Virus record (IMG/VR): IMGVR_UViG_3300032516_000003
Location: 1,341 to 65,340 of that record
From: a virus
Length of the DNA: 64,000 nt
Reading direction: 5' to 3' (one strand)
The notes under the pieces were generated by a model, which worked only from the letters and a program-made list of their open reading frames with translations, was not told where the DNA came from and ran no database searches. Below, one piece after another: positions 455 to 35,631 of this stretch. How positions within the stretch are numbered: position 1 is the first letter of the stretch; each line of letters opens with the position of its first letter. The position numbers and the translations under genes are program-made.

Positions 455-464
455 CCTTATACCA
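455..464 (-). promoter_or_regulatory. TGGTATAAGG extended -10-like box
   Basis: minus strand, ~20 nt before HTH-gene ATG. Confidence 0.4.
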
Positions 465-686
465 TCCTCGTCGGCCGGACAAAGACGTCCCAGGAGCTTC
501 CCAGTTGAGGGTCAGTACCTCTCTCCTACAGGGTCGGGTCACTGGCGGCACGGTTGTGTGATCAATTGGATGCAATGGTTCTCTCTTGGTAGAGGTGTAG
601 GTGTGTATGCTAAGTCATTGGAACTACGCCGGGTTTTGCCTAGTGTCAAATTGCCCACATATCAAGGGGTTAAGTGCGTTCAGATC

Positions 687-701
687 ACTATTTGAAATAG
701 T
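687..701. promoter_or_regulatory. palindromic operator-like site ACTATTTgAAATAGT
   Basis: 7-bp inverted repeat with 1-nt centre in the AT-rich divergent control region next to the HTH gene. Confidence 0.4.
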
Positions 702-712
702 AGAGTAGCATT

Positions 713-742
713 CAAGGGATAGCCACCCCCCCAAGGGATAGA
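713..742. repeat. direct repeat CAAGGGATAG x2 (713-722, 733-742)
   Basis: exact 10-mer twice, 10 nt apart. Confidence 0.5.
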
Positions 743-774
743 CCATGACCATTCCCCAGGTTCACATGACAGGC

Positions 775-822
775 CTTAGCAGGCACACACTAGACCTTGA
801 ACCCCCTTAGCAGGCACACACT
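775..822. repeat. direct repeat CCTTAGCAGGCACACACT x2 (775-792, 805-822)
   Basis: exact 18-mer twice, 12-nt spacer, just upstream of promoter 863-891. Confidence 0.6.
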
Positions 823-862
823 GTTCCAACAATGTACTCCGATCCCCTAGGAACAAAGGTGC

Positions 863-891
863 TTGACAGATCGGTAGGAATCGATCATACT
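863..891 (+). promoter_or_regulatory. sigma70-type promoter TTGACA-17-CATACT
   Basis: TTGACA 863-868, 17-nt spacer, CATACT 886-891; shares ATCGATCATA with promoter at 12885. Confidence 0.55.
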
Positions 892-930
892 GAGGTGGTG
901 AACCAGCGACCAGGAGCACTGGAGGCTGTC

Positions 931-1116
931 ATGTGCTGCCCACTCTGTACCGGCGTGCTGCAAGTGTCGATCCCGGCCATCGGGGACCAGGAACCAGTCA
1001 TGAGCTGCCAGGGCTGCAAGGTGGTCCTGACCAGTGACTTCCTGGGCCTGTACATGGACCAGGCTCTTGACCGCGAGCTCATCCACGAGCTCCACCGGGA
1101 GCTGAAGGCCGCCTAG
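931..1116 (+). CDS. small Zn-ribbon protein (CPLC...CQGC), 61 aa
   Basis: GGAGG 5 nt upstream of ATG 931; GC3 becomes high only from this ATG; downstream of TTGACA-17-CATACT promoter. Confidence 0.5.
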   Translation: MCCPLCTGVLQVSIPAIGDQEPVMSCQGCKVVLTSDFLGLYMDQALDRELIHELHRELKAA

Positions 1117-1236
1117 TCTTCCCCCTCCCTGTCCCAGGGCCTGTGGCTCTTCATTGCCTCCATCCCAGTAAGCTATCCCCTGCGAGAGTGTGTCTATTAG
1201 CGACCCCCTGTCATGTGAACCTGGGGTGATATTGGT

Positions 1237-1321
1237 GGGGTAGGATATATACCTACCTTTGATCAACAAGCCCCAGCTACACCTGGTCACACGAACCAGG
1301 GGTAGGAATTATTGGGGTAGG
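1237..1321. promoter_or_regulatory. three GGGGTAGG boxes (1237, 1299, 1314) plus GGTAGG-ATATATA-CCTACC hairpin
   Basis: iteron-like repeats upstream of HNH gene; related GGGTATAGG at 1355. Confidence 0.4.
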
Positions 1322-1394
1322 TGTATGTGCGCTGATCAATTCACCCTCCTTCCAGGGTATAGGTCCTGTACTCTACCTTGAAGGAGGTTAGATC

Positions 1395-2357
1395 ATGCCA
1401 CCTAAACGAGTCCCTGCGGTCGGGGAGCGCTTTGGAGTACTAGAAGTACTGGGGGAAGTTCCGCCGGGACCGGATTGGAAGACCCGCGTGCGAGTTTCCT
1501 GCCATTGCGGTCGCCCGGGGTGCCATCAAGAACGAGTTGTCATGGCCGCATGTCTCTACCGTGGCATGACCACCTCATGTGGAGCCACGGGGAAGGATCT
1601 GGCTGGTCAGCCATTCGGTTTGCTGAAAGTGATCAGCTTTGCCGGAAGGGACGAAAGGAATAGCCTTCTGTGGCTAGTGGAGTGCCGCTGCGGCCGGCAC
1701 AACTGCCGTCATCAGTTCACCGTGAGAGCCAGCCAGCTACTTGGTGCCAAGATCAGATGTTGTGGCGGAAGACGACGTATAACTGATCTAGGACGGACTC
1801 TGAGCCGACACTACAGTGCCTACAAGGGCAGTGCCAAGAAGCGCCGCCTGGAATTCACGCTCTCTCAGGAGGCGTTCGAGCAACTCTGCATTCAGCCCTG
1901 CTACTATTGTGGACTCCTTGATCAGAAGCCCATCTTTACCCAGAAGAAGGGCGACCACACCAGCCGCACAACCGGGCTGAATGGAATTGATAGAGTAGAC
2001 AATACGAGGGGCTACGAGATCACCAATTGTGTACCCTGCTGTGCTACCTGCAACCGCATCAAGTTGGCACTTCCCGAGCAAGCATTCGTCGACCACTGCC
2101 AGAGGGTGGCGACTCACCAGATTGGACAGGGCATGTACACCCAGGAGCAGCTGCGGGAGCTCCAGGCGGCGATCACCCAGAGGCAGGAGGAGGAACATGA
2201 GTTCAACCATGACCCAGTGCATACTCAGGGGACCCCAGAACCAGGTGGACACCCGATGGATCGAATCCCGGCTGGCCCAGAAGGAGAAGCAGCTGGTGGT
2301 CAAGGCTTCCGGCCAGGTGTGGGTGGTAGTGGAGGTGGGAGCGACCTGGCCAACTAA
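1395..2357 (+). CDS. HNH homing-type endonuclease with duplicated N-terminal Cys/His DNA-binding repeats
   Basis: GAAGGAGG SD; C-terminal GLNGIDRVDNTRGYEITNCVPCCATCNRIK HNH motif; two GxxFGxLxVL...CxCG repeats; last ~50 codons have low GC3 and are overlapped by next gene. Confidence 0.8.
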   Translation: MPPKRVPAVGERFGVLEVLGEVPPGPDWKTRVRVSCHCGRPGCHQERVVMAACLYRGMTTSCGATGKDLAGQPFGLLKVISFAGRDERNSLLWLVECRCGRHNCRHQFTVRASQLLGAKIRCCGGRRRITDLGRTLSRHYSAYKGSAKKRRLEFTLSQEAFEQLCIQPCYYCGLLDQKPIFTQKKGDHTSRTTGLNGIDRVDNTRGYEITNCVPCCATCNRIKLALPEQAFVDHCQRVATHQIGQGMYTQEQLRELQAAITQRQEEEHEFNHDPVHTQGTPEPGGHPMDRIPAGPEGEAAGGQGFRPGVGGSGGGSDLAN

Positions 2358-2463
2358 ACGGGTGTTGGACTATGAATGGGACTATGTGACCATGCCGACG
2401 GTCTCGGATGCCCTCACCGGGAAGGATGGGCGGAGAAGGCTCCCGGTGCGGCCTAAAGGGTGA
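2197..2463 (+). CDS. hypothetical protein, 88 aa
   Basis: perfect AGGAGGAGGAAC-ATG start inside the tail of the HNH ORF; GC3-rich in this frame while HNH frame loses GC3 bias. Confidence 0.45.
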   Translation: MSSTMTQCILRGPQNQVDTRWIESRLAQKEKQLVVKASGQVWVVVEVGATWPTKRVLDYEWDYVTMPTVSDALTGKDGRRRLPVRPKG

Positions 2464-2478
2464 AATTGACCCTTTCCC

Positions 2479-2488
2479 CTGGCATAAG
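2479..2488 (+). promoter_or_regulatory. TGGCATAAGG extended -10-like box
   Basis: 46 nt upstream of ATG 2534. Confidence 0.4.
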
Positions 2489-2533
2489 GCTTGTAGAGGT
2501 CGAGATCAACTTTCGCACCTCTAGGAGGCTGAC

Positions 2534-2950
2534 ATGCACGCACATGCTCGTTTCTGCGCATTCGTGAAGGGTGTGGCCATCGTGATTGGCGGTGACGCAT
2601 GCCACACGGTGGAGAGTCTGAAGAAGGCTCTCCGTGGACGCCGGGCCGAGTTAATTGGTCAGGACGTACTCCTGCAGGTCTACGGGGGTCCCGAGGTGGA
2701 CTTCACCGAGATCGCCTCGGTGAAAGTTCTGGTCACCCCGACCAAGATCCAGGTCCTGGACAACAGCTTCGGTGTCAGCCCTATCAAGTGCGGCTGGGCG
2801 TGGTTAGAGTTCGCCCTGAAGGCGGCCGCGGACTTGGAGCTGAAGTCTCGACCCTGGCCGATGACAGAAGCCCCCGTGGCCCCGCGGCCGCAGACGGCTG
2901 CAGAGCAGGTGGCGGGGGACTGGGTCAAGTTCGACAACTACCACCGCTAG
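2534..2950 (+). CDS. hypothetical protein, 138 aa
   Basis: AGGAGG SD, ATG 2534; TGGCATAAGG box 46 nt upstream; two terminator hairpins follow. Confidence 0.65.
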   Translation: MHAHARFCAFVKGVAIVIGGDACHTVESLKKALRGRRAELIGQDVLLQVYGGPEVDFTEIASVKVLVTPTKIQVLDNSFGVSPIKCGWAWLEFALKAAADLELKSRPWPMTEAPVAPRPQTAAEQVAGDWVKFDNYHR

Positions 2951-2954
2951 GAGG

Positions 2955-2972
2955 AGGGCCTTCGGGCCTTTT
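2955..2972 (+). terminator. intrinsic terminator hairpin AGGGCC-TTCG-GGCCTT + TTTT
   Basis: GC stem, tetraloop, T-run after gene 2534-2950. Confidence 0.6.
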
Positions 2973-3003
2973 AGTCCCTACACGTCGCCCAGGGACTATT
3001 TTG
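2973..3003 (+). terminator. second hairpin AGTCCCT-N11-AGGGACT + ATTTT
   Basis: 7-bp stem followed by T-run; tandem with 2955-2972. Confidence 0.5.
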
Positions 3004-3126
3004 GGGTCCTGATATGTCCTCGATCAAATAGATACAATAGTCCATAGCTGTTTACCATGTACGGGCCCCACTGTTCAAGTCATCCACTCAACGAGGGGCG
3101 GAAGCCCTAGTCCCCACCAGATCGAG

Positions 3127-3136
3127 GTATAAGAAG
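3127..3136 (+). promoter_or_regulatory. GGTATAAGAA -10-like box
   Basis: after double terminator, 18 nt before ATG 3154. Confidence 0.4.
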
Positions 3137-3153
3137 CATGAAAGGAGAACACC

Positions 3154-3240
3154 ATGCGTGTGATCTTCCAGAAGGCCCGTCTCATGGTCATCCTCGTTCC
3201 CCAGAACGGCGCCATCCAGGTCGCCTGGTTCAAGGGCTGA
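3154..3240 (+). CDS. small ORF, 28 aa (MRVIFQKARLMVILVPQNGAIQVAWFKG)
   Basis: AAAGGAGAA SD; TGA overlaps ATG of next gene (ctgACATG); below ORF-table size cutoff. Confidence 0.35.
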   Translation: MRVIFQKARLMVILVPQNGAIQVAWFKG

Positions 3241-3241
3241 C

Positions 3242-3457
3242 ATGCCCTGCGTCTACGTGAAGTTCCCACTGACCAACCCGCCGCTGGCCAGGTACTCGGA
3301 CCAGCGGTTCTCCTTCCACTTCCTTCGCGTCCCCTGCGTGGGGGAGATCGTCGACACCCGGGATGCCAAGTGGGTGGTGCACCGGGTGGTGCACCACGCC
3401 GGCGAAGACATCCTCCCGGACGCCACCGCGACCATCTTCGTCCGACTGGAGGAGTAG
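3242..3457 (+). CDS. hypothetical protein, 71 aa
   Basis: translationally coupled to upstream small ORF and directly abuts HD-domain gene. Confidence 0.5.
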   Translation: MPCVYVKFPLTNPPLARYSDQRFSFHFLRVPCVGEIVDTRDAKWVVHRVVHHAGEDILPDATATIFVRLEE

Positions 3458-4081
3458 ATGGCTCACATCGCCGATCTCATCCAAGCCTGCCGGGTCTGCT
3501 GCTGGCCGGCTCTCGTCACCCTGGTCCCCGAGCTCAAGACTCTGGAGGGCCAGTCCCAGCACCGGGGAGCTGGCGTCGATGTGGCTGAGCACACTCGCCT
3601 CATGCTGGTCCAGTGCCCCAAGGAGGATGATGTCCTGCTTCTTGCCTGCTTGCTGCACGACCTGGGGAAGCCCCAGACGGCCGAGCCCAACCGCAAGGGC
3701 GGCTGGCAATTCCCCGACCATGCCGCAGTCGGTGCCGCCATGGTCCAGCCGATTCTGGAGCGCTTCGACGGTGTGGACACTGACCTGAGCATCCGGCTGC
3801 ATGGCCTGGTGTTCGCCCACATGATGCCACATGGGGGCGAGATCTTGGACATGGGGCCGGACACCGAGCGCTTGATCGACCTGGCCGAGCTCGACTCGGG
3901 CTCCTTCCTCAACCGCTCGGTGGGCAAGGTCCGGGAGCGCTTCAATGCGCTGCGGGTCAAGCACCACCTCCCCGAGCGGCCCTTCCCCCCGCCAGAGCCC
4001 ATCTCCAGGGCTCTGGAGGAGTACCAACGAGTCTGCCTGCAGGGCAAGGAGCCGCGCTATGATGGACCTCAAGCGGCCTGA
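3458..4081 (+). CDS. HD-domain metal-dependent phosphohydrolase
   Basis: LLLACLLHDLGKP motif (H...HD...K) typical of HD superfamily; GGAG SD; ATG 3458. Confidence 0.75.
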   Translation: MAHIADLIQACRVCCWPALVTLVPELKTLEGQSQHRGAGVDVAEHTRLMLVQCPKEDDVLLLACLLHDLGKPQTAEPNRKGGWQFPDHAAVGAAMVQPILERFDGVDTDLSIRLHGLVFAHMMPHGGEILDMGPDTERLIDLAELDSGSFLNRSVGKVRERFNALRVKHHLPERPFPPPEPISRALEEYQRVCLQGKEPRYDGPQAA

Positions 4082-4207
4082 GATCGTCTGTCCCCACCGT
4101 GGGGACAGACGCCTTCCCTGGCTCTGGCTGCCCCGCCCCATGAAGTTCCCCCAGAAGCGTCGGCGGAAGATCCGGCTCATCCGGATCCGGCCGATCGTCT
4201 TCAACTA

Positions 4208-4227
4208 GGCCCTCGGGGCCTTTCCTT
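4208..4227 (+). terminator. hairpin GGCCC-TCG-GGGCC + TTTCCTT
   Basis: ends + strand HD-gene operon. Confidence 0.5.
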
Positions 4228-4246
4228 AGGATGCAGGCTAAGGAAA

Positions 4247-4265
4247 GGGGCCGGCTGCCGGCCCC
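4247..4265 (-). terminator. hairpin GGGGCCGG-CTG-CCGGCCCC (T-rich on minus side)
   Basis: ends minus gene 4275-4523; convergent terminator pair. Confidence 0.5.
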
Positions 4266-4274
4266 TTCTGCGGT

Positions 4275-4523
4275 TCACGGCAGTAGTCGGATGTTCCTGA
4301 TGCCGTCTACACACATGCTCCACAACGTCCTGAAGATGATGTAGCCATCGCGAAGGCCGAAGGTAGCCTGCCAGCGACTTCTCCCAGAGACTGCTTTGAC
4401 TGTCACTTCTGCGTTGCATACGTCGATGTAGGCTGAGACATCGGCGGTACGTAGCACCCCGCGGCTATCCTTGTACTGCAATGCGGGCCACTGCTGATCA
4501 CTATGCGGATTCGGGCAAGACAT
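4275..4523 (-). CDS. hypothetical protein, 82 aa
   Basis: AGGAGG SD before ATG 4523 (minus); convergent with HD operon, hairpin terminators 4208-4265 between them. Confidence 0.6.
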   Translation of the reverse strand: MSCPNPHSDQQWPALQYKDSRGVLRTADVSAYIDVCNAEVTVKAVSGRSRWQATFGLRDGYIIFRTLWSMCVDGIRNIRLLP

Positions 4524-4544
4524 GAAGGCACCTCCTGAATGACC

Positions 4545-4554
4545 TTCTTATACC
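4545..4554 (-). promoter_or_regulatory. GGGTATAAGA -10-like box
   Basis: minus strand, 22 nt upstream of ATG 4523. Confidence 0.4.
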
Positions 4555-4576
4555 CCAATAATGATCATTCGATCAG

Positions 4577-4586
4577 GTATAAGTCT
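4577..4586 (+). promoter_or_regulatory. AGGTATAAGT -10-like box
   Basis: 51 nt upstream of ATG 4637; divergent from 4545 box. Confidence 0.4.
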
Positions 4587-4636
4587 AGTAGAACAGAAGT
4601 TTTACTTTCGTCCGAAACGATCAGAAAGGAGGATCG

Positions 4637-5023
4637 ATGCGGTATCAGATCGTAGATGCCCTCTACGGCGTGCACATGAACACCGTGACCCCTCGGCTTG
4701 TCAGCGAACTTCTGGCGGAACACGGTTATGATCTTCGGGATCTGAAGCCCGGGGAGATGATCCCGATCTTCAACAACAGCTGGGAGTGGGGCGGACTCTG
4801 CGATAGCCGTACTCCGCCCCGCTTCAAGGTCGTCGTCAACGAAGACGGCCTGATCTACCTGAAACAGCCGGTCCACGAAGTGCTCGACCAGATCAGCGGG
4901 CCGCTGAAGTTCAGTATCTACATCCACGCCCACATCACCTGTCCAGCGAAGATCCGGGAGCAGCTGGCCAACTCGCTGGCGAAGCAGAGGCTTGCACTAC
5001 AGAACAAAAGGAGGAAAGCATGA
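4637..5023 (+). CDS. hypothetical protein, 128 aa
   Basis: AAAGGAGGA SD; AT-rich promoter region upstream with GGTATAAG box. Confidence 0.7.
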   Translation: MRYQIVDALYGVHMNTVTPRLVSELLAEHGYDLRDLKPGEMIPIFNNSWEWGGLCDSRTPPRFKVVVNEDGLIYLKQPVHEVLDQISGPLKFSIYIHAHITCPAKIREQLANSLAKQRLALQNKRRKA

Positions 5024-5481
5024 ACTGGAAGAAGATCAAAGGCCGGGGCACCGGCAGTCTCTTCAGCCTGCAGGATCGGCTGAAAATGATGCAGGACCGC
5101 ACGAACGGGCGCAATATCCTCGACATAGCAAAGGAGACCGGCTGCTCCCAGTCGACCCTCGTCACCATGACGGTTCTCATGGTGAAGGAGGGCTACCTCA
5201 GAAGGGTCGGCCACAAGAAGTACCGCATGACCGAGAAGGGGAAGGAGGCGCTGGCGGAGCGGCCGCGGCCGAAGATGGAACTGGTGGAGAGGCCGGGCGG
5301 GGTGGAGCTCAAGATCACGCCGGCCTCGCAGATGAAGGTGGAGGAGACTCCATCGGCGGCCATCAACGACAAGATGAAAAGCCTGGAGGAGGAACTCGCC
5401 TACCAGCAGGCCTCACGGCCGTTCCTCCTCAACATGGGGTGGAAAGTCAGGCTGATGATGGAACTGGAGAAGGCCAAGTGA
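5020..5481 (+). CDS. winged-helix DNA-binding protein
   Basis: AAAAGGAGGAAAGC-ATG; ILDIAKETGCSQSTLVTMTVLMVKEGYLRRVGHKKYRMTEKG is MarR/wHTH-like; ATGA coupling to upstream gene. Confidence 0.7.
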   Translation: MNWKKIKGRGTGSLFSLQDRLKMMQDRTNGRNILDIAKETGCSQSTLVTMTVLMVKEGYLRRVGHKKYRMTEKGKEALAERPRPKMELVERPGGVELKITPASQMKVEETPSAAINDKMKSLEEELAYQQASRPFLLNMGWKVRLMMELEKAK

Positions 5482-5711
5482 GGGTGATCCATCGAGGAGG
5501 ACACCCCGCCCAGGTCATCATCACCTCAGGTCCAGATCTGGAATCCGACGTCCGTTCGAACACGCCGGACTACCAGCCCGATCCCTGGGGTGACTACGAC
5601 CAGGAGAAGAACGGCTACACCAACTCGGAGACCCATGAGTTCTCCCCGGGTCCCGATCGCCCCGCTAAGAAACTCCCACCTCGCGGCCCCCGGGGCCGCT
5701 TCACCACCTGA
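5478..5711 (+). CDS. possible small gene (GTG start), 77 aa
   Basis: in-frame GTG overlapping stop of 5020 gene; GC3-rich; no clear SD; terminator hairpin follows at 5759-5776. Confidence 0.3.
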   Translation: MRVIHRGGHPAQVIITSGPDLESDVRSNTPDYQPDPWGDYDQEKNGYTNSETHEFSPGPDRPAKKLPPRGPRGRFTT

Positions 5712-5758
5712 AAGAGATGCTCACTCCTGGGGCATAAGGATCATGACAGGAGATGGTT

Positions 5759-5776
5759 ACCCCTTCGGGGGTTTCC
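5759..5776 (+). terminator. hairpin ACCCC-TTCG-GGGGT + TTCC
   Basis: after gene ending 5711; GGGCATAAGG box lies 25 nt upstream. Confidence 0.5.
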
Positions 5777-5790
5777 GTTAACCCGTAGAC

Positions 5791-6276: not shown

Positions 6277-6305
6277 GTGACCATAGTACAACAAGCGTAG
6301 GATTC

Positions 6306-6315
6306 TGGCATAAGA
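6306..6315 (+). promoter_or_regulatory. TGGCATAAGA extended -10-like box
   Basis: 28 nt upstream of ATG 6343. Confidence 0.4.
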
Positions 6316-6342: not shown

Positions 6343-6654
6343 ATGGCCCTTAGTGGAGATCGCTGCGCCTGGTACCGCTGCACAGGCGAGATCGACGTCA
6401 TCTATGGTGCCTGCTTTGCCAAGAACGGGGAGCGGCTGAACATCCCGCTCTGTGAGCGACACTGGGGCAAGATCGCCGGCCTAGGATCAATCGAGGCGGG
6501 TGAGGTCTTGCAGAAGAGTGTGCCCAACATTCGGATCGACATCGGGAGGACTAATGAAGCCGCTCTACAAGACCACCATCGTCATCTGGTCCGAGTACGA
6601 CCCGACGGAGAAGTACGAGCTCAAGGAGCTCGCCAACGAGGCCGAGCAGGGTGA
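6343..6654 (+). CDS. hypothetical Cys-containing protein
   Basis: CAGGAGG SD; TGGCATAAGA box 28 nt upstream; last ~30 codons lose GC3 and are overlapped by next gene. Confidence 0.5.
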   Translation: MALSGDRCAWYRCTGEIDVIYGACFAKNGERLNIPLCERHWGKIAGLGSIEAGEVLQKSVPNIRIDIGRTNEAALQDHHRHLVRVRPDGEVRAQGARQRGRAG

Positions 6655-6751: not shown

Positions 6752-6753
6752 TC

Positions 6754-9970: not shown

Positions 9971-9980
9971 CCGAGGTATA
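9971..9980 (+). promoter_or_regulatory. AGGTATAAGA -10-like box
   Basis: start of the 134-nt leader of gene 10104. Confidence 0.4.
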
Positions 9981-10103
9981 AGAGATGTAGGATCAAAGGA
10001 GGATAGCCATGAGAAGAGAGCACGCTCCTCGCGCTCTCGCTAGCCACGAAGCTCATCAACCACGTCGGCCAGGCGGTGGTCGATACGCAACTCAAGGTGA
10101 AAC

Positions 10104-10574
10104 ATGCCAAAGAGCAAGGTCAACGAGAAGAAGAAACGGGGTGACGGATCGGTCCAGCTCCTCGCCCGATTCGCGGGGCTGGGGTCCAAGGACTCGGAGG
10201 AGAACACCAAAGATCTGTTCTTCGCGGCGTTGAACAACGTCGGCTTCATGCGACTACTGATGTGGATCATCCGTGACTGGTTCTTCAGGAAGCTGCTGAA
10301 CTCCAGACCAGAGGGCTTCGGGAAGTATCCTACCTTCTGGCAGTTGATCGGGTTGGCGGTCTCGAAGATGTTCAAGCACAACCTGGAGCGAGGGGACAAC
10401 TACAAGAAGATGGAGGTGGCCGACATCCTGGGAAGGAAGCGGCGCGTCGATGCCCAGATCGAGGAAGCAGTCAACAACAACCGGCCCATCGCAGGGCTGG
10501 TGGCCGACTCCTACAACTACGGCTGGATGCTAGTGGAGAAACTGGGGGAAATGCAGCCTCCAGAGTTCGAGTGA
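10104..10574 (+). CDS. hypothetical protein, 156 aa
   Basis: good GC3; first ATG after in-frame stop; 134-nt leader with strong SD and atypical-codon ORF (see findings); terminator 10578-10607 follows. Confidence 0.7.
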   Translation: MPKSKVNEKKKRGDGSVQLLARFAGLGSKDSEENTKDLFFAALNNVGFMRLLMWIIRDWFFRKLLNSRPEGFGKYPTFWQLIGLAVSKMFKHNLERGDNYKKMEVADILGRKRRVDAQIEEAVNNNRPIAGLVADSYNYGWMLVEKLGEMQPPEFE

Positions 10575-12754: not shown

Positions 12755-12884
12755 GTTACCTCCCAACGTCAGTGATGCTCTTATCACACATTCCTGTGGT
12801 GTTTTCTAAGGCCGGGAAATCCCAACGATCCTGTGGCATAAGCCCGGTACGCACTGCTGATCGCTAAATTGTTCACTTTGGGGC

Positions 12885-12913
12885 TTGACAAAGCCGTGGT
12901 GATCGATCATAGT
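12885..12913 (+). promoter_or_regulatory. sigma70-type promoter TTGACA-17-CATAGT
   Basis: upstream of H1-like gene; spacer/-10 GATCGATCATAGT nearly identical to promoter at 863. Confidence 0.55.
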
Positions 12914-12949: not shown

Positions 12950-13456
12950 ATGTACAACACGGACCAGTGGAAGATCATGAAGCAGCTCGCCGGCTCACTC
13001 CCGAAGCGTGAGTCCCTCAAGATCGGGGACATCAAGGACAAGTGCTTCAAGTCTGCCCCCAACGACCGCGTGGTGCGGAACGCCATCCGCAAGCCGGTCG
13101 CCGAGGGCCACGTCGAGATCGCCGATCGTGGCGACTATCGGCTGACGGCGAAGGGCGCCGCCTTCTGCCAGAAGATGGAGAAGGAGGGCTTCAAGCCGGC
13201 GTCAGTGCGTCAGATGGCGAAGCCGTCTCAATCGATCAAGAAGAGTGCCAAGAAGGCCGCCCCGAAGAAGGTGGCCAAGAAGAGTGCCAAGAAGGCCGCC
13301 CCGAAGAAGGTGGCCAAGACCAACGGAGCCAAGGTCGAGTCCAAGCCGACCGAGAAGTCCCAGGCCCCCGAACCCAAGAAGAGCTCGGTCAAGATCCCCC
13401 GCCCCAAGAAGGACGAGTCGGCAGCTGCCGTTCCTCCGTCCACTCTCAGCTTCTAG
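12950..13456 (+). CDS. H1/Hc1-like DNA-binding protein: wHTH-like N-domain plus Lys/Ala/Pro repeat tail
   Basis: CAGGAGG SD, ATG 12950; tail KKSAKKAAPKKVAKKSAKKAAPKKVAK...KKSSVKIPRPKK; downstream of TTGACA-17-CATAGT promoter; terminator hairpin 13483-13513. Confidence 0.75.
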   Translation: MYNTDQWKIMKQLAGSLPKRESLKIGDIKDKCFKSAPNDRVVRNAIRKPVAEGHVEIADRGDYRLTAKGAAFCQKMEKEGFKPASVRQMAKPSQSIKKSAKKAAPKKVAKKSAKKAAPKKVAKTNGAKVESKPTEKSQAPEPKKSSVKIPRPKKDESAAAVPPSTLSF

Positions 13457-15465: not shown

Positions 15466-15870
15466 TCAGACCTTCTCAATCTCGTAGTTCGTGCGGTTCC
15501 CGTCTTTCGTCTCCTTGACCAGGACGGGGATCCCAGTTGGGAACTCCTCCCACATCTTCGCTTCGATCGCGGCGCGGTGTGCCTCGTCGAAGACGTCATC
15601 TCCCCTGTACTTGTGGCTGTGGTCGTTGTCGCGGAAAGGCACCCACAGGTGTGGGCGGCGCCCTTCCACGACTTCGACAATGACGGTGGGTGTCAGGAAA
15701 CCGTGCCGATGGAGCGTACCGTCATGACGTTCCTCGTCGATGGGCGGCAGGTAGCGAGTGTCGTGTCCAGAGACTACGCAGTTGTAGATCTTCACCGGGA
15801 TGGTCGCAGTCGTTTCCTTCTCGGACTTGTCCTTCTTGGTCGTTTCCTTCTTGGTGGTCTTCGTGGTCAT
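15466..15870 (-). CDS. hypothetical protein with Thr/Lys-rich N-terminus, 134 aa
   Basis: GGAGGACAGC-ATG; convergent to dNMP kinase with perfect 12-bp-stem hairpin 15429-15459 between; CGGTATAAGG box upstream. Confidence 0.65.
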   Translation of the reverse strand: MTTKTTKKETTKKDKSEKETTATIPVKIYNCVVSGHDTRYLPPIDEERHDGTLHRHGFLTPTVIVEVVEGRRPHLWVPFRDNDHSHKYRGDDVFDEAHRAAIEAKMWEEFPTGIPVLVKETKDGNRTNYEIEKV

Positions 15871-15912: not shown

Positions 15913-15922
15913 CTTATACCGT
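15913..15922 (-). promoter_or_regulatory. CGGTATAAGG -10-like box
   Basis: minus strand, 43 nt upstream of ATG 15870. Confidence 0.4.
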
Positions 15923-28980: not shown

Positions 28981-29136
28981 GAATGCACAGCGCCGTCGGC
29001 ACATTCTGTACCGTCCACCCGCTGCGGCCCCGGTGGCGGGGATTTCAACCCTGCACCTCCTCCGACGAGGATCCCTTCGTGCGGCGGCCGTCGTGGCGAT
29101 CTTGTTGATCCACACCGGGAGCTGAGATCTTATACC

Positions 29137-29562
29137 ATGAGCAAGGCCAAGTTTCAGAGCGTCATGGAGCAACGCAACAACCTTCTCAACCTCCAGGCGG
29201 TGTGGACCGAGATCAAGGAGTACCTTGGCAAGTTCATGAACACGGATGCAACGCCGGCGAAACACGGCATTCGCACCAAGACGGCGGAGTTGGTGGTGCC
29301 CCAGGACATCATCAGCAACGTGATCAGCCACATCGAGGTCGAGTACCTCGGCAGTATCCAACAGCAGTTGGACACCATCGACAGGAGCGACGTCCATGTC
29401 CAAGAAGACCAGGGGAGTGAAGAACAAGGTGCCCGGAAGGCCACCCGTCAAGGCCGATCCCCACAAGCAGAAGGCCACCCTCGCCCAGTTCGCCACCCTC
29501 GCCCAAGAGGCGCAGCAGGCACACCAGCAGCTGGCGCAAAAGGCCAACCGGGCGATCGCTGA
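29137..29562 (+). CDS. hypothetical protein; C-terminus uncertain
   Basis: GC3 bias ends ~29395 where next gene starts. Confidence 0.5.
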   Translation: MSKAKFQSVMEQRNNLLNLQAVWTEIKEYLGKFMNTDATPAKHGIRTKTAELVVPQDIISNVISHIEVEYLGSIQQQLDTIDRSDVHVQEDQGSEEQGARKATRQGRSPQAEGHPRPVRHPRPRGAAGTPAAGAKGQPGDR

Positions 29563-29986: not shown

Positions 29987-29995
29987 GAGTCAACG

Positions 29996-31251: not shown

Positions 31252-31302
31252 GGTCTTCCTCTTTGGTGTGCTCATAATGAGCTTTGAGGTTGACGGGTTG
31301 GA

Positions 31303-31593
31303 CTACCATTCTGGATCAACGATTACGTCGTGCCAATCGATGATGTCCCAGTTCAGCCAGCGGGTGGTGAGGAGTTTGCCCTTCAAGGCCTCGTCCTTCT
31401 TCCACTCCGCGTGCTTCTCTTCGGTGGTCTGTCCACCACAGAGAGTGATCTCTCCCATGATGGTGAGGACTCCATCGCTGCGGAAGGAGTCTTCCTTGTC
31501 GATGCCGTAGTCGGAGAAGACGTTGAGGATCTTGTCCTCCTCACCTTCTTCGACCGGCTTGATCTCAATCTCCACTCGGTAGAAGCGGCTCAT
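31303..31593 (-). CDS. hypothetical acidic protein, 96 aa
   Basis: minus-strand ORF, GC3-rich, weak SD. Confidence 0.5.
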   Translation of the reverse strand: MSRFYRVEIEIKPVEEGEEDKILNVFSDYGIDKEDSFRSDGVLTIMGEITLCGGQTTEEKHAEWKKDEALKGKLLTTRWLNWDIIDWHDVIVDPEW

Positions 31594-31865
31594 GGCTGGC
31601 TCCGTGTGTCGCCTGTGAGGATCCACTTGCAGTACCAGCAGAGAGTGCGAGGGTCTTGTAGACCCAGCCGGTATCCGCAATTCTCACAGCGTGTTGGCTC
31701 GATGAGGTGCTCAGGCAGGGGGAGCTCGCTGAAGATCCTCGGCGTTACGCGCCGATGGACTCCGCAATCTGTGGTGACCTCGCCGATGATCTTCTCTCCC
31801 GGCTTGCGCCAGGGAGGGTTGTCGTCGGGGCTCACGGCTGCTCCAGCAGCAGTTGGCTCAGACAT
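31590..31865 (-). CDS. Zn-ribbon protein (CENCG...CWYCKW), 91 aa
   Basis: ATG 31865; ATGA-type overlap with 31303 gene. Confidence 0.5.
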   Translation of the reverse strand: MSEPTAAGAAVSPDDNPPWRKPGEKIIGEVTTDCGVHRRVTPRIFSELPLPEHLIEPTRCENCGYRLGLQDPRTLCWYCKWILTGDTRSQP

Positions 31866-32362
31866 GCGAGCTGCCACTCGCGCTCGATGTGGTAGTCGGC
31901 GGAGGCGGCGGCGGCGGCGGCGGAGGCGGCGGCGGAGTAGGCGGAGTAGGCGGAGGCGGCGGCGGAGGAGGCGGCGAAGGCGGAGGAGGCGGCGGCGGAG
32001 GAGGCGGCGGAGGAGGCGGCGGCGGAGGAGGCGGCGAAGGCGGAGGCGGAGGCGATGTCCAACTCATTCGGCGACACTGACCCAGGCCACTCCAGTGCCC
32101 GCCGAGTGAGTCGTAGGCATGCCTGCACCCGCCGGTCACGGTTGAGATGCCGCACCCGCTCCGCGACGACCAGCGCGTACCACCGCTGCGCGTCGAGGGG
32201 CAGCACAGTGACCAGCCACCACACGTCGATCTCGTCGAGTGCCGCGAGCAGTGACAGGTTCTCTACCGTCGGCTCGAAGCCCTTGGGAAACCGCCGACAG
32301 ACCGTGAGCACCTGTGGCTGGCAAGCATGGTGCGCGCACAACAACTCCTTCGTGATCTTCAT
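31832..32362 (-). CDS. hypothetical protein with N-terminal Cys/His-containing domain and Ala/Ser low-complexity tract encoded by (GGC/GGA)n
   Basis: CAGGAGGCTCTG-ATG at 32362; in-frame with 53-triplet repeat 31897-32055. Confidence 0.5.
   Translation of the reverse strand: MKITKELLCAHHACQPQVLTVCRRFPKGFEPTVENLSLLAALDEIDVWWLVTVLPLDAQRWYALVVAERVRHLNRDRRVQACLRLTRRALEWPGSVSPNELDIASASAFAASSAAASSAASSAAASSAFAASSAAASAYSAYSAAASAAAAAASADYHIEREWQLACLSQLLLEQP
31897..32055. repeat. (GGC/GGA)n trinucleotide tract, ~53 triplets
   Basis: GGCGGAGGCGGCGGC... in-frame on minus strand as Ala/Ser run. Confidence 0.8.
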
Positions 32363-32589
32363 CAGAGCCTCCTGGCGAGCCAGCGCTCCACCGCGCGCTG
32401 CGCCGGTGCTAGATGTACGTAGAGGCGCTCCCACGTCTCGGTGCCGTGCCAGGCATACGCTCGCCGGCCCTGGACGTGGGCGGCGACCATGCCGCCGTGG
32501 CCATCGCCGCCGACCATGAGGTCGGGGCCGTCCCAGTGCCATTCCAGCGTGAGCGCAGGGGAAGAGGGTCCTGTCTTGGCTTTTTTCAT
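32362..32589 (-). CDS. hypothetical protein, 75 aa
   Basis: GAAGGGAGGCGCGCG-ATG; stop overlaps next start. Confidence 0.5.
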   Translation of the reverse strand: MKKAKTGPSSPALTLEWHWDGPDLMVGGDGHGGMVAAHVQGRRAYAWHGTETWERLYVHLAPAQRAVERWLARRL

Positions 32590-32837
32590 CGCGCGCCTCC
32601 CTTCATGTGGCGCCGGGCGGCGAGCATGGCATCTTCGGCCTCAGTCGCAGGCGCGAAGCACTTCACCGTGAGGTAGAGCGTCCCGCACAACGCCTTGCGG
32701 TCGGCGATGGCGACGAGCGCATGGCGCAGCGCCCGTGCCAGCCGATCTTCCGCCTGGTCGGCATCGGCGCCGACGTTGTTCTCGGCGATCTCTACCAGTC
32801 GGTTGCGGATCTCACGCTCGGCTTCGTCGTCGGTCAT
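32586..32837 (-). CDS. hypothetical acidic protein, 83 aa
   Basis: TGCGGGAGGCGCGCG-ATG (same 14-nt initiation block as neighbour). Confidence 0.55.
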   Translation of the reverse strand: MTDDEAEREIRNRLVEIAENNVGADADQAEDRLARALRHALVAIADRKALCGTLYLTVKCFAPATEAEDAMLAARRHMKGGAR

Positions 32838-33085
32838 CGCGCGCCTCCCGCAGGGGGATTGAGCAAAGCGGCCGGCAGGTCGTCGAGCGTGTCGAGTAGC
32901 TCGCGCATATCGGCCCACGAAAGTACGAGGCCGGCGCACGGATCCACGAGCTTCCTCCCGCTATATTCGCCCATGAGCACCTCTGCTTCGCGACGCAGAA
33001 TGCTGATGTCCAGCGAGGTCACGCGCACGAGAATGTCCCCATGTTCGGTGTGACAGATCGTGCGCTCGTCGCCTGGGTTCAGCAT
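32834..33085 (-). CDS. hypothetical protein, 83 aa
   Basis: ATGA coupling; weak SD. Confidence 0.5.
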   Translation of the reverse strand: MLNPGDERTICHTEHGDILVRVTSLDISILRREAEVLMGEYSGRKLVDPCAGLVLSWADMRELLDTLDDLPAALLNPPAGGAR

Positions 33086-33270
33086 GATCTACCGCCCGCG
33101 GGGGGATCGAGGGCCAGTCGCAAATCCTTGACAAACCGCTTCATCACCCCCCAGTCACTCGGCGGTGTCACCGTGGCCCAGTAGACCAGCAGGTGTCTCA
33201 CCCGCTGCTCGCGCTCACGTAGTTCGTCGATCTCGCGGCGCAGTAGTCGCATGGCCTTTGGCTCGCTCAT
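33079..33270 (-). CDS. hypothetical protein, 63 aa
   Basis: ATGA coupling to upstream tiny gene. Confidence 0.5.
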
Positions 33271-33371
33271 GGCTTCACGGGCTCGTAGGTCGCCTCGAAG
33301 ATGTCTGGCTTGCAGGGGTAGCGCTCGCCCTTGACGCCGGTGATGATCCAGTCGCCGGGGATGCACGTCAT
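33267..33371 (-). CDS. tiny protein [34 protein letters not shown], 34 aa
   Basis: GGGAGGGAGAAGG SD; coupled on both sides. Confidence 0.45.
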
Positions 33372-33487
33372 CGTGCCTTCTCCCTCCCCTTGAGTTCCCT
33401 CTCCCTTTTGGTGAGGGCGCTCTCCAGGCCAGGAAGGTAGTTCTTCTTGATCCAATTCTCGTGCCGACGCTCGCGTGCTGCGTTCAT
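33368..33487 (-). CDS. tiny basic protein, 39 aa
   Basis: GTCAGGAGGCTAAGTTC-ATG. Confidence 0.4.
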
Positions 33488-33625
33488 GAACTTAGCCTCC
33501 TGACGTTGATGCCGTTGTGGTGGAGCATAGCGAGACAAGCCAAACAGCACTGGAACTCCGGATCTCTCTTCCGGTTCCCCTTGTAGCGGCCAGTTGACTT
33601 GCCTCGACAAACGGGGAACTGAACT

Positions 33626-34963
33626 TCACAGTTCTTCGTCGACGCATTCTTGGCAGAGCTTGTCGTCTCGCTGTCGCTGGTAGCGCGGGAAGTCGAGCGA
33701 GTTGGTCTTGTCACCTTGGCTCTTGTAGAACCGCGAATCATACTTCACCTCCACACAGATCGGGTACTTCTGGGTTGCGAGTCGTTCCCGCTCTTCGTCG
33801 GTGAAGCCAGAGCAGTCGGCGATATAGGTCTCTTCTCCTTTCTTGTTGAGCTGGTAGAGACTGAGCGTGCCGACCTTGCCCATGTTCTTGCCGGTCCCCC
33901 AGGTCCCCAGCGGCCGCTCTTTGGTGCCCGCGTCCGGATCCCAGTAGGCGCGGAAGTCATCGGTCTGGGCCCGCTTCATCTTGAAGGCACAGGCCGGTCG
34001 ATGGGCCTTGCCGTCGAACGAGTAGCTGTAGTCGCCGATGACCGCCGACGCCTGGTAGCAGACCCAGCCTTCGTAGTTCTCGTTCTCGGCCAGCTCCATG
34101 GCCTCCTTCACCGAGCCCTCGAAGAGCTCCAGGGTGTAGAGGAGGCGGCCCTTGGCTCGATCATCGCGGTAGTCGATGAACTTGTCCCCGAGCGTATTAT
34201 CGATCAGGTGCGCGAGCTCCAGGCAGGTGTGATCGGCCTCCAGGTGCAGGGACTTCCAGAAGGGGATGCGGTAGAGGTAGAATTTCATCCACCCCCGCTC
34301 CTTCTGCCGGTCGGTGGACTTCTGGGGCAGCTTGCAACGCATGATCTCCGAGCACTTGCCGAGGTCGCGCTTGGTGTTACCATCGCCCATGAAGGCCTCG
34401 AACATCAGGATGGTGCAGAACGGGATCTTGAGCTCCTTGATGGCCTTGACCAGATGTGGGAAGTGGTCGGACATGATGTCCATTCGCCGACTGTACAGCA
34501 CGACCTTCCCGTCAGCCTGGACCTGGGCGATCACTGTCATGCCATTCACCTTGCGCGTGAACAGCAGGTCATCCTTCGCTTCCAGAGCCGCGATGTAGTC
34601 CCCGTTGACCTTGTTCCGCGGCTTGGAGAAGCAGAGCTTCTTGGGTAGCCTCTCACCCCAGTCGATCGTCGTCTGAATGGCGCCGCCGACCAGCGGCTGA
34701 CCATCCAGGCCAACCTCGACGTAGCCTTCCTCGGTCTTCTTGCGGATGTCCCGATCCAGGTTGAACTGGGCGTTCGCGTAGGAGTCGACGTAGGCCTTGG
34801 TGTCCTCCTTGCCCTTGGGGCCGGGACGATCTTTCGTCCGGCCATGCTCCTTCCGCTTGCCGTCGACTACCGCGCCCCAGACGGTGCAAACGAAGTCGTC
34901 TTCGAGCCAGGTCTGCCAGAACCGCTCGGCGGAACGACCTTGTCTCTGCCGGAATTCTCTCAT
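33626..34963 (-). CDS. ATP-dependent polynucleotide ligase-like nucleotidyltransferase (Rnl2-like KxNG motif I)
   Basis: GGAGGGAG SD; motif I RKVNGMTV (KxNG as in Rnl2-type RNA ligases, vs KxDG in DNA ligases), motif IV-like EGWVCY, motif V AFKMKR. Confidence 0.7.
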   Translation of the reverse strand: MREFRQRQGRSAERFWQTWLEDDFVCTVWGAVVDGKRKEHGRTKDRPGPKGKEDTKAYVDSYANAQFNLDRDIRKKTEEGYVEVGLDGQPLVGGAIQTTIDWGERLPKKLCFSKPRNKVNGDYIAALEAKDDLLFTRKVNGMTVIAQVQADGKVVLYSRRMDIMSDHFPHLVKAIKELKIPFCTILMFEAFMGDGNTKRDLGKCSEIMRCKLPQKSTDRQKERGWMKFYLYRIPFWKSLHLEADHTCLELAHLIDNTLGDKFIDYRDDRAKGRLLYTLELFEGSVKEAMELAENENYEGWVCYQASAVIGDYSYSFDGKAHRPACAFKMKRAQTDDFRAYWDPDAGTKERPLGTWGTGKNMGKVGTLSLYQLNKKGEETYIADCSGFTDEERERLATQKYPICVEVKYDSRFYKSQGDKTNSLDFPRYQRQRDDKLCQECVDEEL

Positions 34964-35217
34964 GACTCCCTCCGAGTAAGTAGTTGTTCAAGGGCGCGCT
35001 CGATCTTTTGCAGGTCCTTTAGCGACTGCTTGCCGAGCTCCACCGGTCGGGCAGATACGATCCACGCCGTCAACTGCTCATCCCAATCCCCCGCCATCAT
35101 ATTCTCTGGCCAGTTCGCAGGATTCTGGTTCCGCTGTTGGGTCCAATACAGCCTGAACTTCTCGATTTCCATGTGGGCGAGTCTCACGTACTCATCCAAG
35201 GTCAATTGTTTGGCCAT
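34960..35217 (-). CDS. hypothetical protein, 85 aa; first gene of inverted operon
   Basis: CAGGAGGATATCCC-ATG; TGGTATAAGA box 24 nt upstream (minus strand). Confidence 0.6.
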   Translation of the reverse strand: MAKQLTLDEYVRLAHMEIEKFRLYWTQQRNQNPANWPENMMAGDWDEQLTAWIVSARPVELGKQSLKDLQKIERALEQLLTRRES

Positions 35218-35240
35218 GGGATATCCTCCTGAAAGCGAAG

Positions 35241-35250
35241 GTCTTATACC
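35241..35250 (-). promoter_or_regulatory. TGGTATAAGA extended -10-like box
   Basis: minus strand, 24 nt upstream of first gene of inverted operon. Confidence 0.45.
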
Positions 35251-35274
35251 AGCATTCTGTGCTACCATGCGGCC

Positions 35275-35484
35275 ATGATCGCCAAGACTGTGGAAGTCCA
35301 ACTAGACACCTTCGATCCTGACATCCTCACCAAGCCCAAGGAGCAGATCAGCGTCGCGATGGATGCGGAGATCAGGCAGTTCAACCAGACCATGCTGCGA
35401 GCGGGGTTGCAGATGCTAAGCGCCTACGAGCGCACGATCTTGAAGACGTATCTCGCCTATAAGTTGGGCATCCAGCTAAAGTAG
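35275..35484 (+). CDS. hypothetical protein, 69 aa
   Basis: GC3-rich ORF; weak SD. Confidence 0.45.
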   Translation: MIAKTVEVQLDTFDPDILTKPKEQISVAMDAEIRQFNQTMLRAGLQMLSAYERTILKTYLAYKLGIQLK

Positions 35485-35622
35485 GTTCCCGCTGGCCATC
35501 GCCGGTTCTATCTCGCCTCGCTCGTGGCGGGCGGCCTCACCGGCTGCGGTCACCATGCACCTGGTGCGCTCTCCAGGCACATCGCCTTATGCCACCGACC
35601 GTGTGCCGTCTTGCAGGCGATG

Positions 35623-35631
35623 GTAGTATAA
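35623..35631 (+). promoter_or_regulatory. AGTATAAGA -10-like box
   Basis: 24 nt upstream of tape-measure-like gene ATG. Confidence 0.4.

Follow-up and report, generated by a model that had tools for sequence, protein, structure and literature searches.

The window analysed here, a 64,000-nucleotide stretch of a phage genome of ~193 kb, carries a short box that recurs between its genes. The core of this box is the 8-mer GGYATAAG, for which we found 13 matches in the window where 0.97 were expected, a number reached in 0 of 100 shuffles. A preliminary description of this DNA had reported the recurrent box in the longer form TGG(T/C)ATAAG. The box is real, and the 9-mer TGGYATAAG was itself present in 7 exact matches (0.37 expected); however, the base preceding the GG is a T in only 9/17 copies, and we therefore define the box as GGYATAAG rather than TGGYATAAG. 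These 17 exact copies were obtained by adding two 10-kb flanks of the source contig to the window (83.7 kb altogether), and all 17 are intergenic, even though 90% of this sequence is coding and only 10% non-coding. Likewise, GGTATAAG was the top intergenic-enriched 8-mer in an unbiased k-mer comparison (12 intergenic occurrences, 0 coding). Considering the 13 exact copies of the window plus three variants, a Shine-Dalgarno (SD) sequence and start codon follow on the same strand, 18–53 nt downstream, at 12 sites, such that the enrichment upstream of genes and the mostly correct orientation proposed earlier both hold; among the remaining placements, the start codon is 107 nt downstream in one case (12835) and one site is leaderless. 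On either strand, the boxes stand at the head of the majority of operons made up of small genes or of genes for nucleotide and DNA metabolism; from their look, the genes served would be early or middle during infection.

The copies are described below with their exact coordinates, from which those first given deviated by 0–4 nt. The leftmost box (GGTATAAG, 456–463, minus strand) precedes the ATG of gene 69–437(-) by 18 nt, and the first variant, GGTATAGG (1356–1363, plus strand), is found, as listed earlier, 31 nt upstream of an SD and the ATG at 1395, which opens an ORF with weak coding signal (1395–2357). The GGCATAAG box at 2481–2488(+), 45 nt upstream of gene 2534–2950, has an orthologous copy at position 279 of L014, a contig from a close relative. 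At 3126–3133(+), a GGTATAAG box precedes by 20 nt an uncalled 28-codon ORF (3154–3241, GC3 of 0.86), and gene 3242–3457 is directly next to it. Two further GGTATAAG boxes, 21 bp apart, form the divergent pair that had been noticed before: 4547–4554(-), 23 nt upstream of gene 4275–4523(-), and 4576–4583(+), 53 nt upstream of gene 4637–5023. The GGCATAAG box at 5731–5738(+) serves no ORF and, as also noted previously, is closely followed by a hairpin (5759–5776); L014 (position 8512) retains this box together with the 15 nt that come after it (GATCATGACAGGAGA), and likewise has a hairpin there, but of different sequence. GC-rich hairpins also occur just upstream of the boxes at 2481 and 5731, and these are absent from a terminator scan requiring a T-run. 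The next GGCATAAG box (6307–6314, plus strand) is located 28 nt upstream of an SD and the ATG at 6343. A GGTATAAG box right after the dNK gene (9975–9982, plus strand) is conserved in L014 at 10686 and is followed by an SD and an ATG at 10009, the first clearly coding gene downstream being 10104–10574. The GGCATAAG box at 12835–12842(+), upstream of gene 12950–13456, stands in tandem with a canonical promoter (12885–12913) and forms an isolated stretch of identity when aligned with L014, and the GGTATAAG box at 15913–15920(-), 42 nt upstream of gene 15466–15870(-), is conserved in L014 at 16869.

Two minus-strand boxes had been described as pointing antisense into plus-strand genes. This is the case for the GGCATAAG box at 35586–35593(-), which runs against the conserved gene 35275–35484(+), is not conserved in the related contig L018 and lies back-to-back with the box at 35625(+), thus making a second divergent pair; the two pairs both occupy divergent intergenic regions. 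The other, the GGTATAAG box at 29129–29136(-), has no obvious gene; it points into the gap 28981–29128 and abuts the ATG (29137) of an uncalled plus-strand gene. Between them, a GGTATAAG box (35243–35250, minus strand), with an equivalent in L018 at 240(-), precedes by 25 nt gene 34960–35217(-), the head of a leftward operon with a ligase-like gene. The copy at 35625–35632(+), which the preliminary description had counted as regular at 35623, is in fact a variant (AGTATAAG; TAGTATAAG when read over 35624–35632), 22 nt upstream of a 1300-aa gene (35655–39557) that heads the operon whose last gene encodes a sigma factor. The third variant, GGTATAAC (44198–44205, plus strand), was already on the first list and is a positionally conserved family member: it is found in a 24-nt gap after a 1061-aa gene, and the same geometry recurs in two related contigs (L023 and L019). 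Salmonella phage Arash has GGTATAAG just before gp9-gp10. Variant boxes thus stand at the head of a large-virion-protein operon and of the sub-operon holding the phage sigma gene, and the three variants (1356, 35625 and 44198) look functional too. Taken together, GGYATAAG is very probably a promoter family of this ~193-kb phage.

The box is not restricted to this genome. L014 (63% GC) carries 13 copies, and further copies are present in L013 (55% GC), L018, L020 (42% GC) and L026. In phage Arash we counted 31 copies versus 2.6 expected; 30/31 share their strand with the non-structural genes, and one is located 12 nt before a tRNA gene. Vibrio phage D69 has a GKTATAAG form, seen as tG(G/T)TATAAG in intergenic gaps. 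Because the same box occurs in distant relatives that have other hosts and that encode a sigma factor of their own, its reader is probably part of the phage machinery and not of the host's.

Counting from the first G of the box, a pyrimidine/purine step is conserved at +13/+14 in 15/17 copies here, 12–13/13 in L014 and 30–31/31 in Arash. Moreover, in the window (44212, MDQWLPSF...), L023 and L019 one gene has its ATG precisely at the predicted +1, and the transcript covering the 97-aa, 197-aa and sigma genes would therefore be leaderless. The step 6–7 nt after the box and the ATG on +1 together locate the predicted start site and thereby identify YATAAG as a -10-like element, as the earlier description had proposed; the predicted start lies 6–8 nt past the hexamer, as in sigma-70 promoters. 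In this anatomy, GG would occupy -14/-13 and YATAAG -12 to -7, with transcription starting at the purine 7 nt past the final G and with no need for a -35 element. Indeed, no -35 element is conserved upstream of the boxes, the sequence being only slightly rich in A around -32/-31, in line with the original proposal. The orientation-dependent position upstream of start codons would equally suit an element of the 5' leader acting in RNA, as a processing site or a stability or translation element, instead of a promoter. We consider this very improbable, since anything from 6 to 121 nt separates the box from the SD or ATG, the -10-like sequence comes with its conserved pyrimidine-purine step, copies precede a tRNA gene and an ORF-less hairpin, and ~15 operons would be left without another candidate promoter.

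The promoter reading, the -10 position and the dispensable -35 element of the initially proposed extended -10 promoter thus stand, whereas the fit to the TGnTATAAT consensus does not. Position -7 is a G in 17/17, 13/13 and 31/31 copies (61 in three phages), where the sigma-70 consensus has a T, one of the two bases that are flipped out and bound by sigma-70 (PMC7598289). G(-14), G(-13) and A(-11) are likewise invariant, a C is allowed at -12, and T(-15) is present in about half of the copies (9/17 here, 4/13 in L014 and 18/31 in Arash). The invariant G(-7) and G(-13), the half-conserved T(-15) and the tolerated C(-12) all depart from TGnTATAAT. In addition, the window contains a separate canonical class, gCTTGACA-N17-CATAnT, conserved independently of the box, and canonical TTGACA-N17-TAnnnT promoters also exist in Arash alongside the box. 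Given that phages of 42–63% GC share this non-consensus box and that a canonical class coexists with it, the box appears to mark a distinct, lineage-specific class, which is most likely associated with the sigma of the phage itself and not with the host primary sigma. Since about every second copy has the TGn-like T before its GG, the host primary sigma may nevertheless use these promoters weakly. A stronger version, in which (T)GG-YATAAG is an extended -10 read directly by the holoenzyme of the host primary sigma, with the phage sigma acting at other promoters, for instance late ones, would account for the -10-like position with its A at -11, the frequent T(-15), the lacking -35 element, a start-site spacing typical of bacterial RNA polymerase, the early or middle look of the genes served, and the phage sigma gene amid virion genes, as could befit a late factor. 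We regard it as unlikely in view of the invariant G(-7), where primary sigmas bind the flipped-out T, the invariant G(-13), an identical non-consensus box in phages across that GC range, those of Salmonella and Vibrio among them, and the separate canonical promoters in the same genomes.

The phage sigma is encoded at 45111–45881(+) as a sigma-70-family protein of 256 aa (Pfam Sigma70_r3, E=1.5e-8, and a weak r4 hit). Over its whole length, its structural model can be aligned with SigD, SigB, SigA, sigma-S and WhiG, so that Pfam hits and the full-length sigma fold of the model together indicate domains 2, 3 and 4. The protein is 28% identical to the Arash virion sigma Gp10 and its gene is found in the same order: gp6-like, gp8-like, sigma, an arrangement shared by 12 IMG/VR contigs, with a 407-aa window gene matching gp6. 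It lacks the canonical region-2 TYAxWW motif with its tryptophan pair and keeps the clade-invariant RFxxxYQN..R..E.R. A Gp10-type sigma is the one component common to all box-bearing phages that we examined, and the gene order around it is shared as well. Since the sigma gene lies behind boxes of this class, the sigma would have to be delivered in the virion, or the first round of transcription would have to occur in another way.

As for the polymerase core, Gp10, Gp206 and Gp216 were all detected in Arash virions, a signal that, according to the authors, could be carry-over of abundant proteins (PMC10585845). Pfam hits identify Gp206 as a fusion of beta with the N-terminal part of beta', with Gp216 supplying the C-terminal part. 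Four clade contigs whose sigmas are 38–41% identical encode their own beta/beta' polymerase, and contig 3300023210_000011 combines a fused beta-beta' polymerase, the clade sigma and a GGCATAAG box. The catalytic motif D[FYW]DGD was absent from the window and flanks (84 of ~193 kb), and among the polymerase matches listed there was none from the eight IMG/VR contigs whose sigmas are closest (39–69% identity). From the relatives that do carry a polymerase, we infer that the ~193-kb genome probably encodes a phage polymerase core.

On balance, we lean, with somewhat better than even confidence, towards the GGYATAAG promoters being read through the phage sigma 45111–45881, the counterpart of Arash Gp10. 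This ~193-kb myovirus would then have a lineage-specific class of promoters built around GGYATAAG, in which sigma domain 2 contacts the -10-like part and domain 3 the GG ahead of it, in an extended -10 mode of different specificity. Given the sigma and phage beta/beta' polymerase in Arash virions, the reading enzyme would probably be a phage-made, possibly injected holoenzyme; should the phage have no core of its own, the phage sigma would redirect the host core polymerase. Alternatively, the box could belong to another phage factor encoded in the remaining ~110 kb (a second sigma comparable to Arash Gp196, an activator, or host polymerase in a modified form), leaving the 45111–45881 sigma to read something else. 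Arash indeed has two sigma genes, and our view covers 84 of ~193 kb; however, Gp196 retains the canonical TYAGWW..Q in region 2, which makes it the natural reader of the canonical promoter class, a homologue of it was found in none of the clade loci examined, and it is the Gp10-type sigma that all box-bearing phages share. This alternative therefore seems improbable to us.

Compared with known systems, the phage-sigma promoters proposed here resemble the bacterial sigma-70 extended -10 class (TGnTATAAT) in their -10-like hexamer, an upstream extension of 2–3 bp, the lack of a -35 element, a start ~7 nt downstream and a sigma whose region-3 domain is available for contacting the extension. They differ from it in the base pattern described above and in their proposed reader, a divergent phage sigma without the region-2 tryptophan pair. 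The middle and late promoters of Thermus phage P23-45 are alike in having a -10-like hexamer with an upstream extension and no -35 element. In jumbo phages of the phiKZ/AR9 type, whose early promoters are read by virion RNA polymerase, a short and highly conserved motif near -10 was found computationally upstream of early operons (PMC7598289). A short -10-centred motif is conserved here as well, but it is less AT-rich; the window phage is, like phiKZ, a large myovirus, with a tail sheath 34% identical to phiKZ-type sheaths, and in relatives a multisubunit phage polymerase was detected in virions (PMC10585845). Unlike the phiKZ/AR9 polymerases, which come in 4–5 pieces and have no sigma homologue, the polymerase of this lineage, where seen, is a bacterial-like beta/beta', fused or in two pieces. 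A phiKZ/AR9-type system does not fit, as no genes for split virion and non-virion polymerases of this kind were found in the 84 kb (PHROGs and Pfam, large proteins) and a sigma-70-family gene is present. T4 late promoters (TATAAATA), which depend on gp55, gp33 and the sliding clamp (see PMC7824862), are likewise 8-bp, -10-only and phage-specific, and act through a phage sigma-family protein; gp55 is however minimal and serves late structural genes, whereas the sigma discussed here has domains 2, 3 and 4 and the boxes serve mainly non-structural genes. A T4-type late promoter was discarded because a GGYATAAG scan found no boxes in the structural region (46–74 kb) and because regions 3 and 4 are present in the sigma, whose fold is full-length.

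The closest match is phage Arash (OQ632216.1, an 'orphan' 181-kb myovirus), which has the same 8-mer GGTATAAG in its 31 copies upstream of non-structural genes, the homologous Gp10 in the same gene order, and the canonical promoters in addition. It differs in having only T at the third box position and an extended downstream consensus, taaagTGTAa, and in that its polymerase genes (Gp206/Gp216) and second sigma (Gp196) are documented, whereas none of these was seen in the 84 kb covered for the window phage. The published description of Arash makes no mention of promoters (PMC10585845), and the Arash-like GGTATAAG promoter class is defined here by comparison, not being described in the literature that we searched. 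Of the features of this class, the window shows intergenic, gene-oriented GG(T/C)ATAAG boxes with the pyrimidine-purine step, and a Gp10-type sigma in the order gp6-like, gp8-like, sigma.

Our analysis of the recurrent box covered the window and an extended set of 83.7 kb with validated gene calls, in which the window is joined to 10-kb flanks (L009 on the left, L011 on the right) from the metagenomic contig ena:ERZ27248201:k141_3956766. In the nine-nucleotide form given in the preliminary description, TGGYATAAG, the box occurred seven times in the window (0.37 expected), and the 8-mer GGYATAAG occurred 13 times (0.97 expected), a count reached in none of 100 shuffles. The extended set contained 17 copies of the 8-mer compared to 1.55 expected, all of them intergenic even though 90% of this sequence is coding. 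The recurrence was therefore confirmed, as were the reported coordinates (to within 4 nt), but the leading T was not, given that a T precedes GG in only 9 of the 17 copies; hence, we take GGYATAAG as the core. When 8-mers were ranked by intergenic enrichment without any prior assumption, GGTATAAG came out on top with 12 intergenic and no coding occurrences, while a second intergenic motif, CTAAGG/GCTAAG, did not form a coherent family. One-mismatch variants were mostly coding, with GGTATAGG at 1356 and AGTATAAG at 35625 being intergenic and well placed. With respect to strand and distance, 16 of 20 sites (17 exact copies and three variants) were followed on the same strand by a start codon at a distance of 18-53 nt, with a Shine-Dalgarno sequence; for box 12835 the start lies 107 nt downstream. 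The divergent pair 4547(-)/4576(+) noted previously was upheld, and a second back-to-back pair, 35586(-)/35625(+), likewise sits between divergent genes. Between 46 and 74 kb, where the structural genes lie, there was no box.

At the -35 position, nothing was conserved. Counting from the first G of the box, position 13 was a pyrimidine and position 14 a purine, each in 15 of 17 copies of the 83.7-kb set; the corresponding numbers were 12/13 and 13/13 in the relative L014, and 30/31 and 31/31 in Arash, a Salmonella phage (OQ632216.1). This pyrimidine/purine succession corresponds to the usual -1/+1 step, which would place YATAAG at -12 to -7. The variant GGTATAAC at 44198-44205 is located within the 24-nt gap after a 1061-aa gene, and ATG 44212 coincides exactly with position 14. 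The protein starting there (MDQW...ELEKI) begins at the same point in two relatives, and the spacing is equal in L023 (GGTATAACtaggtcATG) and one base longer in L019. Given this conserved start, the gene appears to be leaderless, which would be very hard to account for unless the box were a promoter. Overall, we consider it very likely that the boxes are promoters.

Some copies deviate from the common arrangement. Box 5731 is not followed by an ORF but by a hairpin, taken for a terminator in the preliminary description, and the same succession is found in L014, where the box and the next 15 nt are kept and the hairpin differs in sequence, suggesting that the arrangement is under selection. This box might give rise to a very short RNA, serve as an attenuated start, or drive antisense transcription running into the convergent gene. 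Two minus-strand copies had been described as pointing antisense into plus-strand genes. Of these, 35586(-) faces the conserved plus-strand gene 35275-35484 and is absent from relative L018. The other, 29129(-), abuts the ATG of an uncalled plus-strand gene with a GC3 of 0.88, and the gap into which it points is 150 nt long. The stretches 29137-29562 (+), 35275-35484 (+) and 3154-3241 (+) are all likely genes with strong third-position GC that are uncalled in the source. The L018 counterpart of 35275-35484 (280-513) has TTGACG-N17-TACGAT upstream and a leaderless ATG.

The genome also carries ordinary -35/-10 promoters, from which the GGYATAAG box is distinct. Within the first 20 kb, the two top-ranking sigma-70-type sites, both intergenic, are gCTTGACA-N17-CATACT at 863-891 (+) and gCTTGACA-N17-CATAGT at 12885-12913 (+), the latter 43 nt downstream of box 12835. 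An alignment with L014 near 12835 showed conservation of the box and of both hexamers, TTGACA and the -10 (CATAGT in the window and CATTAT in L014), with a freely varying spacer. Arash contains around ten canonical sites, clustered near tRNA genes. Judging from the sequences, the natural partners of this class would be the host sigma and the second sigma of Arash, Gp196, which retains TYAGWWVMQ.

We next turn to the relatives. In L014 (63% GC; dNK, the gene preceding box 9975, 90% identical), 13 copies of GGYATAAG were present in 18.8 kb, several of them orthologous in position, and the boxes 13692(-)/13723(+) are placed back-to-back at divergent genes as in the window. The box was also found in L013 (55% GC), L018, L020 (42% GC) and L026. 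Arash contains 31 copies of GGTATAAG compared to 2.6 expected, 30 of which are on the strand of the non-structural genes; these 30 are all intergenic or at gene boundaries, each pointing at a start codon or tRNA gene, and the extended consensus is tGGTATAAGtaaagTGTAa. In Vibrio phage D69, tG(G/T)TATAAGtaatatag occurs in four intergenic gaps. The final G of the box was invariant in the window, these relatives, Arash and D69. A perfect palindrome, GCGTAGCTACGC, lies upstream of promoters in L013 (8350-9470) and may represent an operator or the stem of a terminator. A 197-kb phage found via dNK (L015) turned out to be unrelated and to have a different motif; its genes lack leaders and are headed by TCGTAGTACGG(CC), which represents another promoter family. 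The 'Moraphage' lineage is likewise unrelated.

The window itself has a GC content of 60% and densely packed small genes, among them those for a tail sheath (PHROG E=1e-93, 34% identity to phiKZ-type sheaths), an amidase endolysin and tail-fibre-like proteins. No near-identical DNA match to 20 kb of the window was found among deposited phages, and tRNA and Rfam scans returned no matches. Exact protein matches assign the window to the 193,704-bp ENA contig (a 193,340-bp JGI contig is likewise on record), whose ends it bridges and from which it diverges at the contig's end (window 33270 onward versus L006 15250-15698). As both contig ends are thus linked by different sequence, the window stems from another assembly or variant. 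Copy number also differs between assemblies for a perfect 39-bp tandem repeat at 13237-13319 (2.1 copies, lysine/alanine-rich, within gene 12950-13456), which is shorter by one copy in the ENA contig; a GGC-rich 12/15-nt repeat (10-13 copies) is found at 31897-32054 within the minus-strand gene 31832-32362. Outside the window, at about 5-7.6 kb to its left, L009 15434-18016 encodes an 860-aa protein with Vault/MVP_shoulder Pfam matches, a major-vault-protein-like gene that is unusual for a phage. The stretches 438-930 and 1117-2196 are unusually long with few or no confident genes, mark the divergence point of leftward and rightward box-driven operons, and could be an origin or regulatory region; two copies of AGTGTGTGCCTGCTAAGG lie on the minus strand in this gene-poor region, at about 762-810. 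In the leaders of two late genes (~53445-53470 and ~53758-53785), a hairpin-like element recurs with the loop in common, GCAGC-ATTGAACAG-GCTGC and TAGCG-TTGAACGGGCC-CGCTA; it may act as a late signal for regulation or processing.

A potential reader of the box is a sigma-70-family protein of 256 aa encoded in the window (45111-45881; Pfam Sigma70_r3 E=1.5e-8, weak region 4), whose structure model (mean pLDDT 79) aligned over its full length with SigD, SigB, SigA, sigma-S and WhiG. A homing endonuclease gene (HNH_3/NUMOD4; 45878-46402 (+)), absent from the source's gene calls, lies between the sigma and tail sheath genes. More than 150 homologues of the sigma were found on metagenomic contigs of up to ~190 kb; among deposited phages, it matched only Gp10 of Arash (28% identity) and three Vibrio phages. 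The gene order of a large virion protein, a small gene, gp6-like, gp8-like, a small gene and sigma is conserved, and a Gp10-type sigma was the one component common to all box-bearing phages examined. These sigmas carry a clade-invariant RFxxxYQN..R..E.R where the canonical TYAxWW would be expected, and are without the usual tryptophan pair. Primary sigmas bind flipped-out A(-11) and T(-7) (PMC7598289). The G at -7 and those at -14/-13 are invariant in phages whose hosts are unrelated, which argues for a factor travelling with the phage. A box is located just upstream of the gp9-sigma genes in both the window and Arash, which fits a factor that would arrive in the virion and then be re-supplied. 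These sequence features lead us to slightly favour the idea that the box is read through the phage's own sigma.

Gp206, Gp216 and the sigma Gp10 are reported from purified Arash virions (PMC10585845). Pfam matches confirmed Gp206 as a fusion of beta with the N-terminal portion of beta' (Rpb2_6 E=3e-56; Rpb1_2) and Gp216 as the C-terminal portion of beta'. The D[FYW]DGD catalytic motif was not found in the 84 kb read. The sheath similarity had suggested membership in the group with phiKZ-type virion polymerases, which we rejected: a sigma gene is present, the catalytic motif is absent from this stretch, and the large proteins had no polymerase match in PHROGs, Pfam or PDB. Four IMG/VR contigs with sigmas 38-41% identical to that of the window encode a beta/beta' polymerase (72-100% identical among themselves). 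On one of them, the whole contig 3300022752_000019, a 2,119-aa single-chain beta-beta' polymerase adjoins the portal gene ~48 kb downstream of sigma, and by analogy the gene of the window phage would fall outside the stretch available. In profile and pattern scans of IMG/VR for the polymerase, the eight contigs with closer sigmas were not among the matches listed, none of the best 120 Gp206 homologues was on the 193,704-bp contig, and a metagenome scan to extend the right flank had no match. A genome scan for the polymerase returned mostly bacterial rpoB/C. Single-chain beta-beta' fusions of ~2,100 aa (e.g., L244 3750-10109 (-) and many of L316-L472) were seen at more than 500 IMG/VR loci and are very common on 100-190-kb viral contigs, usually adjoining the portal gene. 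Since the window phage is bracketed by Arash and the group with 38-41% sigma identity, it probably has its own polymerase core.

Tentatively, and at somewhat less than even likelihood, GGYATAAG could be the promoter of a phage-encoded, virion-delivered, sigma-dependent multisubunit RNA polymerase across a whole widespread clade. This clade would consist of ~165-195-kb phages with their own bacterial-type beta-beta' core and a divergent sigma, among them Arash, Vibrio phage D69 and at least 12 IMG/VR contigs carrying the sigma, with very different hosts. Its sigma would retain a single -10 specificity that departs from the canonical one, GG-YATAAG with its G at -7. If true, no promoter class would have been assigned before this one to a phage RNA polymerase that depends on sigma. 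An 8-mer kept across hosts provides a testable handle on the recognition of a G-ending -10 by a sigma without the tryptophan pair, makes it possible to map operons and timing in many uncultured phage genomes, and could yield an orthogonal promoter/sigma pair for engineering. As Arash is cultured, decisive experiments are feasible now.

Phage-specific promoters are already known, but the GGYATAAG class was not described in the literature searched. The extended -10 assignment of the preliminary description stands insofar as the box works like such an element; however, T(-7) is absent and replaced by an invariant G. T4 late promoters are similarly short and -10-centred, but they serve late genes with a minimal sigma, which is not the case here. 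The same short, -10-centred layout characterizes the promoters of jumbo-phage polymerases, yet those enzymes work without sigma, whereas a sigma is present here. Recent reviews, whose scope does not include this lineage, describe phage multisubunit polymerases as lacking sigma and sigma-encoding large phages as lacking polymerases; contrary to this division, Arash and several clade members have both.
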